Virus record (IMG/VR): IMGVR_UViG_2681813227_000024
From: a virus
Lineage: Duplodnaviria > Heunggongvirae > Uroviricota > Caudoviricetes
Direction: 5' to 3' (one strand)
Length of the DNA: 7,812 bases
Shown: positions 146 through 6,260 of the stretch, piece by piece
Layout of the letters: every line of letters begins with the position of its first letter
Position numbering within the stretch: position 1 is the first letter of the stretch
Translations under genes and position numbers: made by a program
The notes under the pieces: generated by a model
What the model was told of the DNA's origin: nothing
The model's database searches: none
What the model saw: the letters and a program-made list of their open reading frames with translations, nothing else

Positions 146-298
146 ATGCAAAAAATCGACCTCGGCAACAACGAATCCCTAGTGTGTGGCGTGTTCCCCA
201 ACCAGGATGGAACGTTCACCGCCATGACGTATACCAAAAGCAAAACATTTAAAACTGAAACAGGCGCACGTCGCTGGCTTGCCAAAAATACCAGCTAA
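146..298 (+). CDS. ydaF: YdaF-like small Rac prophage protein (50 aa), function unknown
   Basis: ATG 146-148 is the first start in an open frame ending TAA 296-298. Translates to MQKIDLGNNESLVCGVFPNQDGTFTAMTYTKSKTFKTETGARRWLAKNTS. It lies 10 nt after the ydaG stop in the same orientation, consistent with the ydaG-ydaF pair of Rac. No strong Shine-Dalgarno is seen. Not in the ORF track (<60 aa). Confidence 0.55.
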   Translation: MQKIDLGNNESLVCGVFPNQDGTFTAMTYTKSKTFKTETGARRWLAKNTS

Positions 299-496
299 TC
301 CATTTATTGGATTAATTCAATATTCTCGCTGTAGAGGTATAGCCGAGGCCACCAAAGCCCGGAGGTGGTGAAATAAAACCGGGCATAACACGAAGGCGCA
401 TTTCCGGTATCCATAAAGAGTCGGTCTTGTCTGTCAAATTTAAATGGTGGGAGTGCGCCTCCGGTTGTGAATAACAACACTGCTGTGTGTAGTCTT

Positions 497-543
497 GGCG
501 GCATCAGTTTTTTCTTGAAGTTCGACTGATGTCCGCCCTTTTT
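497..543 (+). terminator. Terminator-like hairpin: ~11-bp GC-rich stem with 1-nt bulge, 18-nt loop, then C + T5
   Basis: 5' arm ggcggcatcag (497-507) pairs with ctgatgtccgcc (526-537), with t532 bulged. It is followed by c + ttttt (538-543). The loop is long, so the efficiency is uncertain. The ATG of a 26-codon ORF (529-609) lies inside the 3' arm. Confidence 0.3.
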
Positions 544-715
544 AAAGTGAAAACACCTGGAGGCACCAGGCACCGCATCAACAAAGTTCACTTCGGTGAT
601 GAAAGGTGAGAGAAAATGTTGAATGTAGCTATTGAAAACCAGAACGGGTGGAATTATAGTGCACCTGCACCTTATAAAACGGGTGCCGGGCGTGGAAACC
701 CGATGATGATTACCG

Positions 716-2353: not shown

Positions 2354-5026
2354 ATGAGCACAAAACCACTCTTCCTTTTACGGAAAGCGAAAAAATCATC
2401 CGGTGAGCCTGACGTCGTCCTGTGGGCAAGCGACGATTTTGAATCAACCTGTGCCACTCTGGACTACCTGATCGTTAAGTCAGGTAAAAAACTGAGCAAC
2501 TATTTTAAAGCTGTTGCCACGAATTTTCCTGTCGTTAATGACCTGCCCCCTGAAGGTGAGATCGATTTTACCTGGAGTGAACGCTATCAACTCAGCAAAG
2601 ACTCCATGACCTGGGAACTAAAACCGGGAGCAGCACCAGACGACGTTCACCACCAGGATAATGCTCAGGAAACCAAAGAACTGGCGGGAGGCCTGGAAGA
2701 AAACGCGCAGGCAGACGCCCACGGGGATTGCCAGGATTGCGAAGTCTCTGTAGCCACTTTGCGGTTCACACAGCGTCTTCTGCACATTTTTACGTATGCG
2801 GCCGGGGATCGGAAATACCTGCATCATGCCACCCGTAAACAACGCGAACACATTACCGCTCTTGAGATGGATCAGGAAAACAGCTATGTCCAGAATCTGC
2901 TGTTGGCCATACGCGGCATGGCAGAACCGACAACTCTGGATAATGCCGCCCTGCTCCGCCTGACTGATGCAATTAAGGCAGTTTTCTCTATCACGAAAAA
3001 ACATCAGCCCTATGAATTTAAGAATTTCATTTCAGCCTGGCTGGACACCGAACACATTGATCGCGGTCTTCTAACAAAAGAATGGCGAAAAGGGAATCGT
3101 GTTTCACGCATCACTCGCACAGATTCCGGTGCTAATGCAGGCGGCGGGAACCTTACCGATCGCGGCGAAGGTTTCGTTCATGATCAGGCGTCGCTGGCCC
3201 GCGACGTAGCCACTGGCATTCTGGCCCGTTCAATGGACGTGGACATCTATAACCTTCATCCGGCACACGCTAAACGCATTGAGGAAATTATCGCTGAAAA
3301 TAAACCGCCCTTTTCTGTTTTCCGCGACAAATTCATCACCATGCCTGGCGGGCTGGATTATTCCCGCGCCATCGTGGTTGCGTCCGTGAAAGAAGCACCA
3401 ATTGGGATCGAGGTCATCCCCGCGCACGTCACTGAATATCTGAACAAAGTACTGACTGAAACTGATCATGCCAACCCTGATCCGGAAATCGTGGATATTG
3501 CCTGCGGTCGTTCCTCTGCCCCGATGCCGCAGCGTGTAACAGAAGAAGAAAAACAGGATGATGAAGAAAAACCGCAACCATATTGCGCAATGGCAGATGA
3601 ACAGGCAACGGCTGAAACAGTGGAACCGGATGCAACTGAACATCATCAGGACACGCAGCCGCTGGATGCTCAGTCACAGGTAAATTCTGTTGATGAAAAA
3701 TATCAGAAACTGCGGGCAGAACTCCATGAAACACGGAAAAACATTCCGCCCAAAAATCCTGTCGATGCAGACAAATTACTGGCTGCTTCGCGTGGTGAGT
3801 TCGTTGAAGGGATTAGCGACCCGAACGATCCGAAATGGGTAAAGGGGATCCAGACTCGCGACTCTGTGTACCAGAACCAGCCAGAAACGGAACAAAACAC
3901 GCCAGAAACTGTAAAAACCAGCCCGGATGTGAAACAACCTGAACCAGTAGTGCAACAGAAACCGGAAATAGTCTGCAATGCCTGCGGTCAGACTGGCGGG
4001 GATAACTGCCCTGACTGTGGTGCGGTGATGGGCGACGCAACGTATCAGGAAACCTTTAATGAAGAAAATCTGGATGAATCTCAGGAAAAAGAGCCGGAGG
4101 AAATGGAAGGCCCTGAACATCCGCACAATGAGAATGCTGGCAGCGATCTGCATCGCGATTGCAGTGATGAAACTGGCGAAGTCGCAGATCCCGTAATCGC
4201 AGGAGACATAGAGCCTGGTATTTATTACGGAATTTCGAATGAGAATTACCACGCGGGTCCCGGTGTCAGTAAGTCTCAGCTCGACGACATTGCTGATACT
4301 CCGGCGCTGTATTTGTGGCGTAAAAATGCCCCTGTGGACACCACAAAGACAAAAACGCTCGATTTAGGAACCGCTTTCCACTGCCGTGTACTTGAACCGG
4401 AAGAATTCAGTAACCGCTTTATCGTAGCACCTGAATTTAACCGCCGTACAAACGCCGGAAAAGAAGAAGAGAAAGCGTTTCTGATGGAATGCGCAAGCAC
4501 AGGAAAAACGGTTATCACTGCCGAAGAAGGCCGGAAAATTGAACTCATGTATCAGAGCGTTATGGCTTTGCCGCTGGGTCAATGGCTTGTGGAAAGCGCC
4601 GGACACGCTGAATCATCAATTTACTGGGAAGATCCGGAAACAGGAATTTTGTGTCGGTGCCGTCCGGACAAAATTATTCCTGAATTTCACTGGATCATGG
4701 ACGTGAAAACCACAGCGGATATTCAACGATTCAAAACGGCTTATTACGACTACCGCTATCACGTTCAGGATGCATTCTACAGTGACGGTTATGAAGCACA
4801 GTTTGGTGTGCTGCCAACTTTCGTTTTTCTGGTTGCCAGCACAACTGTTGAATGCGGACGTTACCCGATTGAGATTTTCATGATGGGCGAAGAAGCAAAA
4901 CTGGCAGGCCAGCAGGAATATCACCGCAATCTGAGGACCCTGGCTGACTGCCTCAATACCGATGAATGGCCAGCTATTAAGACGTTATCACTGCCCCGCT
5001 GGGCTAAGGAATATGCAAATGACTAA
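2354..5026 (+). CDS. recE: RecE, exodeoxyribonuclease VIII (5'-3' dsDNA exonuclease of the RecET recombination system), 890 aa
   Basis: The N-terminus [26 protein letters not shown] and the C-terminal third ([24 protein letters not shown] ... [25 protein letters not shown] ... [13 protein letters not shown]) match RecE as I recall it, including a PD-(D/E)xK-type nuclease motif (RPD...MDVKT). The protein also carries a central acidic low-complexity region and a C-x2-C-x7-C-x2-C motif (nt 3974-4018). It sits directly upstream of recT with overlapping stop/start. Confidence 0.95.
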
Positions 5027-5828
5027 GCAACCACCAATCGCAAAAGCCGATCTGCAAAAAACTCAGGGAAACCGTGCACCAGCAGCAGTTAAAAATAACG
5101 ACGTGATTAGTTTTATTAACCAGCCATCAATGAAAGAGCAACTGGCAGCAGCTCTTCCACGCCATATGACGGCTGAACGTATGATCCGTATCGCCACCAC
5201 AGAAATTCGTAACGTTCCAGCGTTAGGAAACTGTGACACTATGAGTTTTGTCAGTGCAATCGTACAGTGTTCACAGCTCGGCCTTGAGCCAGGTAGCGCC
5301 CTTGGCCACGCATATTTACTGCCTTTTGGTAATAAAAACGAAAAGAGCGGTAAAAAGAACGTTCAGCTAATCATTGGCTATCGCGGCATGATTGATCTGG
5401 CTCGCCGTTCTGGTCAAATCGCCAGCCTGTCAGCCCGTGTTGTCCGTGAAGGTGACGAGTTTAGCTTCGAATTTGGCCTTGATGAAAAGTTAATACACCG
5501 CCCGGGAGAAAACGAAGATGCACCAGTGACCCACGTCTATGCTGTCGCAAGACTGAAAGACGGAGGGACTCAGTTTGAAGTTATGACGCGCAAACAGATT
5601 GAACTGGTGCGCAGCCAGAGTAAGGCAGGTAATAACGGGCCGTGGGTAACTCACTGGGAAGAAATGGCAAAAAAAACGGCTATTCGTCGCCTGTTTAAAT
5701 ACCTGCCTGTCTCAATTGAAATCCAGCGTGCAGTATCAATGGATGAAAAGGAACCACTGACAATCGATCCGGCAGACTCCTCTGTATTAACCGGGGAATA
5801 CAGTGTAATCGATAATTCAGAAGAATAA
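5019..5828 (+). CDS. recT: RecT, single-strand annealing protein (RecT/Redbeta family), 269 aa
   Basis: ATG 5019 gives [64 protein letters not shown]... ending ...[14 protein letters not shown], 269 aa, matching K-12 RecT as I recall it. The start overlaps the recE stop (ATGACTAA) and follows AAGGA at 5006-5010. The track start at 4962 is an over-extension lying inside recE. Confidence 0.93.
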
Positions 5829-5872: not shown

Positions 5873-6079
5873 ATGACAAAAACTTTGAGATATGACGATG
5901 TTAAACCATGTCCGTTTTGTGGTTGTCCATCAGTAACGGTGAAAGACATTTCATGATATTACCGGGCAAAATGCAACGGATGCGAATCCCGAACTGGCTA
6001 TGGTGGAAGTGAAAAAGAAGCGCTCGAAAGATGGGATAAACGAACCACTGAAAATATTAATGGAGGCGTTCATGTATAA
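5873..6079 (+). pseudogene. ralR: ralR (lar) restriction-alleviation / type I toxin gene interrupted by an in-frame TGA at 5954-5956
   Basis: ATG 5873 (the K-12-equivalent start is TTG 5885) reads MTKTLRYDDVKPCPFCGCPSVTVKDIS, then TGA, then continues in the same frame as YYRAKCNGCESRTGYGGSEKEALERWDKRTTENINGGVHV to TAA 6077-6079. The two halves together form a CPFCGC...CNGC zinc-ribbon-like motif and a 64-68 aa product like K-12 RalR as I recall it. The downstream half has no start codon of its own. Confidence 0.6.
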
Positions 6080-6260
6080 AATTACCGCTACAATTGAAAA
6101 GGAAGGTGGCACTCCTACTAACTGGACAAGATATTCAAAATCTAAACTAACGAAATCAGAATGCGAAAAAATGCTCTCAGGTAAAAAAGAAGCAGGCGTT
6201 TCCAGAGAGCAGAAAGTAAAACTGATAAATTTTAATTGCGAGAAACTTCAGTCCTCGTGA
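6072..6260 (+). CDS. ydaC: YdaC-like small Rac prophage protein (62 aa), function unknown
   Basis: ATG 6072 with GGAGG at 6062-6066 (5-nt spacer) gives MYKITATIEKEGGTPTNWTRYSKSKLTKSECEKMLSGKKEAGVSREQKVKLINFNCEKLQSS. It overlaps the ralR stop (ATGTATAA) and sits in the position of ydaC in K-12. The track start at 6000 lies inside ralR and lacks a Shine-Dalgarno. Identity with K-12 YdaC is not verified. Confidence 0.55.
   Translation: MYKITATIEKEGGTPTNWTRYSKSKLTKSECEKMLSGKKEAGVSREQKVKLINFNCEKLQSS

Follow-up and report, generated by a model that had tools for sequence, protein, structure and literature searches.

What occupies the roughly 315 bp that follow ydaF in this prophage? The window analysed here, meaning the whole stretch of 7,812 nucleotides, reads as the early-left arm of a Rac-type prophage on the + strand, and the chromosomes of E. 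coli 13E0725 and O157:H7 F6294 are 100.0% identical to it, one indel apart. Its layout is as follows.

1-135, + strand: ydaG
146-298, + strand: ydaF
299-615, + strand: the gap in question
616-1464, + strand: Rha/antirepressor open reading frame (ORF)
1511-1732, + strand: kilR
2354-5026, + strand: recE
ending at 5828, + strand: recT
6078-6256, - strand: ralR with the RalA sRNA
from 6577: xis and int

The recE, recT, ralR/RalA, xis, and int ORFs in the rest of the window are intact. Within 299-615, every + frame is interrupted (5, 5, and 8 stops), and the only ATG-initiated ORFs that start there have 8 codons (position 444), 26 codons (529-609, translated as MSALFKVKTPGGTRHRINKVHFGDER), and 7 codons (position 599), so the interval holds no credible ORF, as the first-pass annotation had stated. 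Comparison with relatives and with Pfam likewise recovered no conserved ORF or family match across 299-615. Taken as a whole, the interval is predicted to fold more stably than shuffled versions of it (z = -3.05; none of 100 as good). It had also been described as lying upstream of kilR and recET; kilR is not the next gene, as the Rha/antirepressor gene and its two sRNAs (616-1464) intervene. The interval is the non-coding KilS locus of a Rac-type prophage. The main result is thus one of clean-up, in which a seemingly empty gap is explained by a published sRNA, while the kinship of that sRNA with DicF, a shared structured leader, a unique deletion, and several annotation artefacts are incremental points.

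The KilS sRNA gene and its terminator

RefSeq lists the ncRNA kilS (b4833) of E. coli K-12 at NC_000913.3 1418405-1418502, between sieB and kilR. By alignment, window positions 447-543 are its orthologue, an element already known and annotated in the reference genome.

447-543, + strand: KilS sRNA gene, orthologue of K-12 kilS (b4833)
478, + strand: position equivalent to the K-12 RNase E cleavage site, mapped by alignment
481-494, + strand: single-stranded seed UGCUGUGUGUAGUC, the same in K-12 KilS
497-543, + strand: KilS intrinsic terminator (hairpin 1), with an 11-bp stem and one bulged U (497-537), C538, and U5 (539-543)

The gap is not empty because K-12 kilS aligns from its first to its last base with 447-543. 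End to end, 92 of 98 positions are identical (94%), the seed is the same, and the differences amount to five substitutions and one U fewer in the loop, the RNA being 97 nt long in the window and 98 nt in K-12. The surrounding sequence agrees, since a BLAST search of complete E. coli genomes placed the sieB-kilR intergenic region of K-12 Rac at ~95% identity to window positions 324-551. As in K-12, KilS of the window lies in a Rac-type prophage, 3′ of ydaG-ydaF and 5′ of kilR.

Only in K-12 is it known that KilS is expressed and depends on Hfq, and where its transcription start and RNase E site lie. There, KilS was predicted from RIL-seq data and assigned to the kilR 5′ UTR (Bar et al. 2021, PMC8175672). 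Northern analysis gave a band in the wild type and none in delta-hfq, using two probes that match the seed and the hairpin, and the RNA builds up in stationary phase at a size that agrees with RNA-seq (PMC8175672). Supplementary file 6 of the same study gives a transcription start site at 1418502, which corresponds by alignment to window position 447, and an internal RNase E site at 1418471, or KilS nt 32 (PMC8175672). Because 447-543 aligns to this northern-verified gene, hairpin 1 is the terminator of KilS, and an sRNA gene, one of the candidate roles first proposed for the interval, was the right choice.

The GC-rich hairpin with a C+T5 tail that had been noticed in the initial reading was recovered at 497-537, followed by C538 and T539-543. 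The predicted folding energy of its sequence, GGCGGCAUCAG…CUGAUG(U)CCGCC (497-537), is -19.5 kcal/mol (z = -3.9), a value that none of 200 shuffles reached. It escaped a simple terminator scan solely on account of its loop, which is longer than 8 nt. The U-tract is short, at 5 nt, and the 3′ end of K-12 KilS maps to the last U of the terminator according to the RefSeq end and the alignment. Covariation is uninformative here, since the stems do not vary among 17 KilS, DicF, and intermediate variants.

Among the partners reported for KilS is yncL, with which it forms RIL-seq chimeras (PMC8175672). Positions 484-493 of the seed can form ten consecutive Watson-Crick pairs with the yncL 5′ UTR at -36 to -27. 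By our estimate, ~0.035 such matches are expected by chance, and a windowed duplex test against shuffles gave p ~0.1. The predicted pairing is therefore only moderately unlikely by chance; it agrees with the RIL-seq partner and is not proof of it.

Matches to window positions 280-640 were found in 2087 of 5426 complete E. coli genomes. In one scan of GTDB species representatives, the motif was present only in Escherichia, Shigella, Salmonella, and two metagenome bins, which are probably contaminated. Annotation pipelines leave KilS unmarked outside K-12.

Taken together, the locus very probably encodes a KilS orthologue, a DicF-like sRNA that acts in trans and has a terminator that additionally limits read-through. 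Orthology to K-12 indicates an RNA of ~97 nt that starts at 447 and ends at the terminator U5 (539-543). It would be transcribed from an extended -10-type promoter in the loop of a leader hairpin, and read-through from the early-left genes ydaG-ydaF would probably supply it as well. Trimming by RNase E near 478 would leave a DicF-sized core of ~66 nt, in which the single-stranded seed (481-494) is followed by the terminator hairpin. This layout matches that of DicF, a 53-nt, proven trans-acting sRNA, and by this analogy KilS appears to work as DicF does, with its seed pairing with target mRNAs on Hfq. The terminator would stop part of the transcription toward the ant module, kilR, and recET, and KilS would therefore double as an attenuator, like the DicF terminator before dicB.

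Judged from position, the attenuator or silencing role is plausible and compatible with the anatomy, as a GC-rich stem-loop with a U-tract lies on the transcribed strand upstream of ant, kilR, and recET. The element might even act solely in cis, as a lambda tL-like terminator or attenuator that silences ant, kilR, and recET in the lysogen, with the RNA a targetless by-product. We regard this as unlikely, although a strong hairpin and U-tract do separate the early-left genes from toxic downstream genes, and Cardinale et al. in 2008 are said to have found that transcription termination keeps kilR silent in K-12. The RIL-seq partners of KilS are also few, with 3 unique targets at low prediction scores (PMC8175672). 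However, KilS of K-12 is stable and Hfq-dependent and forms specific chimeras (PMC8175672), its 14-nt seed is invariant across KilS variants while adjoining positions vary, and its paralogue DicF is proven to act in trans; moreover, the two roles are not mutually exclusive.

The shortened spacer and the inserted antirepressor module

Between the KilS terminator and the end of the interval lies a segment that differs from that of all relatives.

544-615, + strand: spacer remnant, made up of the first 8 nt (544-551), the junction AA (552-553), and the cargo-proximal end

In every relative, the spacer from the sRNA terminator to the cargo gene measures ~175 nt. The window keeps its first 8 nt and last 62 nt, and the AA at 552-553 replaces 113 nt. 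This junction is absent from the 5426 complete E. coli genomes, IMG/VR, and JGI metagenome contigs. The remnant contains a hairpin, CCUGG-AGGCA-CCAGG, at 556-570, and the intact spacer of relatives gives sub-threshold Rfam matches to STnc100. Located just 3′ of KilS, the deletion might change 3′ processing or read-through.

The same deletion accounts for the 26-codon ORF (529-609), which is an accident of the 113-nt loss unique to the window. It begins in the 3′ arm of the terminator, runs across the junction, and stops within the conserved cargo-proximal part of the spacer; intact relatives have a different and interrupted frame. A role as a leader peptide, for which it could have been considered, thus falls away, since it spans a window-unique junction and has no conserved counterpart. 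A small protein gene, whether this ORF or a 138-residue ORF on the - strand (304-720), is extremely improbable. Both ORFs exist mechanically, and PGAP labels the same spacer in a relative (L003) as ‘partial DicB’, but that product has no similarity to real DicB and results from translating a 5′ UTR. In L001 the - strand ORF is split into 89 + 64 codons, in K-12 it has 95 codons, and neither ORF has a Pfam match.

Beyond the spacer, the window carries a compact module on the + strand.

632-660, + strand: promoter-like site TTGAAA-17-TATAGT, from a promoter scan
667-743, + strand: IsrK-family sRNA (Rfam isrK, 62.7 bits; cut-off 50)
721-738 (stem) with T7 at 739-745, + strand: IsrK terminator (hairpin 2), from a terminator scan
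744-881, + strand: 45-codon ORF
768-855, + strand: C4-type antisense RNA (Rfam C4, 73.1 bits; cut-off 45)
913 (probable start) to 1464, + strand: Rha/antirepressor gene with a Phage_pRha domain

Hairpin 2, whose pairing can be extended to 716-748, folds at -13.6 kcal/mol (z = -3.6). The first-pass annotation was right that this hairpin exists and ends in T7; it lies outside 299-615. Nor do the two hairpins form a tandem terminator pair, since they belong to two separate sRNA genes, KilS and IsrK, the latter within a separate inserted module. Pfam Phage_pRha matches residues 120-203 of the 282-residue ORF, and the frame from an ATG at 772 continues in frame into the Rha ORF. Annotation pipelines translate neighbouring RNA genes and 5′ UTRs as protein, as seen in ‘partial DicB’ and in the 282-residue ‘Rha’.

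The order of the module (promoter-like site, IsrK, 45-codon ORF, C4-type RNA, and Rha/antirepressor gene) mirrors that of isrK-orf45-anrP in Salmonella Gifsy-1 and of immI in P1/P7 (C4 RNA-icd-ant). The Gifsy-1 module adjoins a Q-like antiterminator gene, whereas that of the window is part of the early-left arm of a Rac-type prophage, with KilS on one side and kilR on the other, and isrJ was not detected in it. Only 24 of the 5426 E. coli genomes carry this 0.85-kb ant module between KilS and kilR. The same module occupies the equivalent point between DicF and dicB in L003; because it is present in both the KilS-kilR and DicF-dicB spacers, it behaves as a mobile insert in a conserved spacer.

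The leader and candidate promoter of KilS

Upstream of KilS, the interval contains a short junction followed by a structured segment shared with K-12.

299-323, unstranded: AT-rich junction that follows the ydaF stop and includes an imperfect palindrome of 18 nt (305-322)
325-347, + strand: predicted small hairpin CUCGCU…AGCCGAG, where the sequence in common with the K-12 sieB-kilS intergenic region begins
349-383, + strand: candidate H-type pseudoknot, from hand-parsed segments
394-460, + strand: conserved leader hairpin, with the KilS 5′ end within its 3′ arm
432-440, + strand: extended -10-like box TGTCAAATT, ending 7 nt 5′ of the orthologous KilS start

The AT-rich inverted repeat reported after ydaF is real, with arms TATTGGATT and AATTCAATA that match at 8 of 9 positions, and its coordinates are 305-322 rather than 304-321. 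A palindrome as good occurs in ~3% of shuffles of the region, and as RNA it is weak (-3.4 kcal/mol, z = -1.8). In K-12 Rac, the divergent sieB sits at this point between ydaF and the leader and kilS, whereas the window is without it. Other lineages have different small divergent ORFs in the sieB slot, and the window has none.

The segment at 324-446 is common to K-12, where it lies between sieB and kilS. On its own, the fold of 324-400 is not significant (z = -1.0). The hand-parsed pairing of 349-383 has the textbook geometry of a candidate H-type pseudoknot, in which S1 pairs CCACC (349-353) with GGUGG (364-368), S2 pairs CCCGG (358-362) with CCGGG (379-383), and the third loop (369-378) is A-rich. 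Relatives preserve this arrangement while S2 is changed on both sides, to CCUG/CAGG in L029, L062, L006, L018, L021, and L075 and to CCCG/CGGG in L108, and its equivalent in most DicF loci is a plain hairpin (CCCUGA/UCAGGG). A put-like antiterminator resembling that of HK022 was considered for 324-400 and rejected, as a blastn search of 299-560 against 50,697 phage records, at ~65% identity or more, gave no HK022 match. The HK022 put RNA consists of two stem-loops, not a pseudoknot.

The leader hairpin at 394-460 lies within a segment (385-483) that folds at -33.9 kcal/mol (z = -3.7). It occurs at both KilS and DicF loci with a nearly invariant loop motif of the GUUAAAUUU type (GUCAAAUUU in the window), while its closing stems are type-specific (GCGCAUUUCC/GGGAGUGCGC, GCGCACGG/CCGUGCGC, and GCGCGUUC/GAGCGCGC). 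Because MAFFT alignments of the leader hairpin and pseudoknot were not structure-consistent, the comparison relied on strand-asymmetry folding and hand parsing. The + strand is the stabler in 35 of 36 unique KilS/DicF variants, with means of -21.4 vs -15.8 kcal/mol, suggesting that the feature works at the RNA level and not in the DNA. Since the mapped KilS start falls inside its 3′ arm, the hairpin would form only in transcripts that arrive from upstream. Rfam has no match for the pseudoknot at 349-383 or the hairpin at 394-460, and the literature searched makes no mention of a shared structured leader; this strand-specific element, conserved at both loci, has apparently been examined by nobody.

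The same loop motif resembles an extended -10 box, 7 nt before the mapped KilS start, and we take 432-440 as the candidate KilS promoter. A consensus promoter scan returned nothing at 432-440. K-12 and most relatives have TGTTAAATT at this position, where the window has TGTCAAATT. The hexamer is CAAATT in the window vs TAAATT in K-12, one mismatch worse, and the T-to-C change at its first position, which may weaken the KilS promoter, is confined to the ant-insertion lineage (window, L001, and L033).

This substitution raises the question of whether the KilS allele of the lineage is a decaying remnant that is no longer expressed or functional, as do the 113-nt deletion immediately 3′ of the gene and the frequent defectiveness of Rac-type prophages. 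We consider decay improbable. The 97-nt RNA is intact, with its seed and terminator unchanged, early-left read-through could supply it, and the recE-to-int ORFs listed above are preserved in the same window.

KilS and DicF as related prophage sRNAs

An Rfam scan at a permissive threshold matched DicF (RF00039) at 484-538 with 42.8 bits (E = 6.7e-7), short of the gathering cut-off of 48 bits. K-12 KilS scores 39.1 bits and the true DicF in L003 75.8. A pattern scan of IMG/VR and GTDB genomes returned 133 sites, which fall into two main types, canonical DicF (97) and KilS (36, or 35 plus the window), with an intermediate (L108) and a Salmonella variant beyond them. The elements UGGCGG-AUCAG-UUUU…CUG…CCGCCCUUUUU are invariant in 17 KilS, DicF, and intermediate variants, and the DicF terminator scaffold UGGCGG-AUCAG…CUG…CCGCCC-U5 is present in KilS of the window. 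Among the 133 sites, YdaF/YdfA (DUF1391) lies upstream of both types, and the next gene is mostly dicB after the DicF type and always kilR at the 36 KilS sites; DicF+kilR hybrids occur in L006, L037, and L039. Past the terminator, the spacers of Qin-type and Rac-type loci share 73-82% identity.

From these alignments, KilS looks like a diverged paralogue of DicF, and the two appear to be alleles of one prophage cassette consisting of a DUF1391 gene, a structured leader, an sRNA, a conserved spacer, and a division-inhibitor gene. We do not file KilS as a DicF family member, because the Rfam cut-off was missed and the ftsZ-pairing segment is not conserved. The word DicF is absent from the main text of Bar et al. 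2021 (PMC8175672). The literature searched likewise held no report that connects DicF to an sRNA of Rac, although the kinship may have been noticed earlier.

The shared scaffold, the Rfam match, and the same position before a division-inhibitor gene could also suggest that the window carries a functional DicF copy, one that would repress the translation of ftsZ and so reinforce the division block by KilR. A GGCG/CGCC contact with ftsZ 5′ of the ribosome-binding site could still form. Yet a score of 42.8 bits, below the cut-off and far from that of true DicF, argues against it, and the segment that pairs with the ftsZ ribosome-binding site is replaced, with no ACUCCG and a different 5′ seed. 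In duplex predictions with ftsZ (-80 to +40), KilS does no better than shuffled sRNAs: the fraction of shuffles at least as good is 0.77 for KilS of the window, 0.27 for K-12 KilS, and 0.23 for real DicF, so that this low-power test does not separate real DicF either. On balance, such a copy is very unlikely.

More speculatively, a single mobile cassette may take either DicF or KilS as its head, with the shared leader a cis-acting RNA device and the seed swapped to retarget the sRNA; we put this forward only as a tentative idea that is doubtful at present. The parts of the leader would then be the candidate pseudoknot at 349-383, a CAYAACRCGAA linker, and, at 394-460, the hairpin specific to the + strand, whose AU-rich loop is invariant. 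If so, the leader, for example as a processing or anti-termination switch, would decide the fate of the early-left transcript, between a stop at the sRNA and read-through into dicB or kilR, and a seed swap between prophage types would retarget the sRNA. Irrespective of such a device, the KilS/DicF pair offers a natural experiment in the retargeting of a prophage sRNA with its scaffold kept and a different FtsZ inhibitor downstream.

Apart from K-12 KilS, which is the same gene, the closest known system is DicF of the dicBF operon in the Qin/Kim prophage. In both RNAs, an unpaired 5′ seed precedes a GGCGG…CCGCC hairpin and U5, and both loci place the conserved leader hairpin 5′ and a homologous spacer 3′ of the sRNA, between a DUF1391 gene (ydfA or ydaF) on the 5′ side and a gene for an FtsZ-directed division inhibitor on the 3′ side. 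RNase E generates the 5′ end of DicF, and an internal site for this enzyme has been mapped at a comparable position in K-12 KilS; Hfq dependence is also common to DicF and K-12 KilS. The KilS core is ~70% identical to DicF, but the seed is UGCUGUGUGUAGUC in KilS vs UUUCUGGUGACGUU in DicF, and the DicF loop segment …UUUUACUCCGUGACUGCUCUG…, which pairs with the ftsZ ribosome-binding site, becomes UUUUUUCUUGAAGUUCGACUGAUGU. The ACUCCG…CUGCUCUG segment is likewise replaced, leaving KilS without the anti-ftsZ (anti-Shine-Dalgarno) ACUCCG box, and the DicF pairing segments for ftsZ, xylR, and pykA are not conserved. KilS has the longer and more regular stem (11 bp vs 5+2+5 in DicF), DicF loci have ~125 nt extra between the leader hairpin and the sRNA compared with KilS loci, and the downstream partner is kilR for KilS and dicB for most DicF.

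As the DicF terminator precedes dicB, so an intrinsic terminator in KilS stands between the early-left genes and ant, kilR, and recET. This arrangement also recalls lambda tL-type terminators and leader attenuators, where an intrinsic terminator likewise lies in the early-left unit before kil and recombination genes. Unlike lambda tL, no N/nut or put-type antitermination element was identified in the window, and, on the K-12 data, the terminated product of the KilS locus is itself a stable, Hfq-bound sRNA.

Conserved spacer between the sRNA and the division-inhibitor gene

Among the KilS- and DicF-type loci compared here, the non-coding stretch that separates the sRNA terminator from the division-inhibitor gene (dicB or kilR) matches the Rfam family of STnc100, a Salmonella sRNA, only below threshold, at 39 and 28 bits (cut-off 47), at the following positions:

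L003 (DicF locus with dicB downstream) 2391-2532: sub-threshold STnc100-like spacer match
L134 (locus with sieB) 423-609, - strand: sub-threshold STnc100-like spacer match

Part of this stretch in L003 (2449-2532) carries the PGAP label “partial DicB, missing C-terminus”. The labelled feature is 5′ UTR spacer in translation (VLWVDSLYPALIVNWLTSPGGTRHRINKVHFGDER) and does not resemble genuine DicB, whose gene lies 0.9 kb downstream.

The window lacks most of the STnc100-matching spacer: relative to E. coli 13E0725 and O157:H7 F6294, which are elsewhere 100% identical, 113 nt of the KilS-to-cargo spacer are replaced by AA at 552-553. This junction had no match in 5426 complete E. coli genomes, IMG/VR, or JGI metagenome contigs; a rare deletion, misassembly, or editing of the sequence could account for it.

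Four loci (L006 from Salmonella enterica, L037, L039, and L063) are hybrid cassettes: a DicF-type sRNA is followed either directly by kilR or by the ant module (the IsrK-C4-Rha/antirepressor insert) and then kilR. These arrangements indicate recombination within the conserved spacer. Also recovered was an intermediate sRNA variant, followed by a different gene from kilR or dicB:

L108 (IMG/VR contig) 3719-3757, - strand: KilS seed GCUGUGUGUAGUC carried on a shorter, perfect hairpin

Leader and putative promoter region upstream of KilS

KilS loci and DicF loci alike keep the leader hairpin; its stems are type-specific and its loop motif, GUUAAAUUU, is near-invariant. The + strand is the more stable in 35 of the 36 variants, and the 3′ arm of the hairpin contains the mapped K-12 KilS start. 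Stem 2 of a candidate H-type pseudoknot is altered on both sides among related loci, and the candidate matches no Rfam family.

Window 349-383: candidate H-type pseudoknot, CCACC-AAAG-CCCGG-A-GGUGG-UGAAAUAAAA-CCGGG
Window 394-460, L003 about 2118-2180, and 35 other variants: leader hairpin

At the first position of the -10-like hexamer ahead of KilS (window 435), the members of the ant-insertion lineage (the window, L001, and L033) carry C, and K-12 and every other KilS-type locus carry T.

Small, divergently transcribed genes occupy a variable slot that lies between ydaF and the KilS leader; in the window (299-323) this slot holds only an 18-nt palindrome. Its occupants elsewhere are:

L134 872-1360, and K-12: sieB
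L062: ORF of ~92 residues with CxxC…CxxH
L029: ORF of ~55 residues

RalA and the Rha/antirepressor reading frame

A full-length Rfam match to the RalA antitoxin sRNA (218 bits; window 6078-6256, - strand) lies opposite to and overlaps the ralR region; RalA/ralR is a known type I toxin-antitoxin system of Rac. Within the ant module, PGAP assigns a 282-residue ORF (616-1464) to the “Rha family” in identical genomes, and this ORF traverses the IsrK (667-743) and C4 (768-855) RNA genes. The Pfam Phage_pRha match is confined to residues 120-203, and the RNA-overlapping part (residues 14-109) matches Phage_ASH. The true start of the Rha protein is probably the ATG at 913, or the ATG at 772, which would give a long form like Ant1. 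The window also has an ORF of 45 codons (744-881) that is reminiscent of orf45 in the Gifsy-1 isrK locus.
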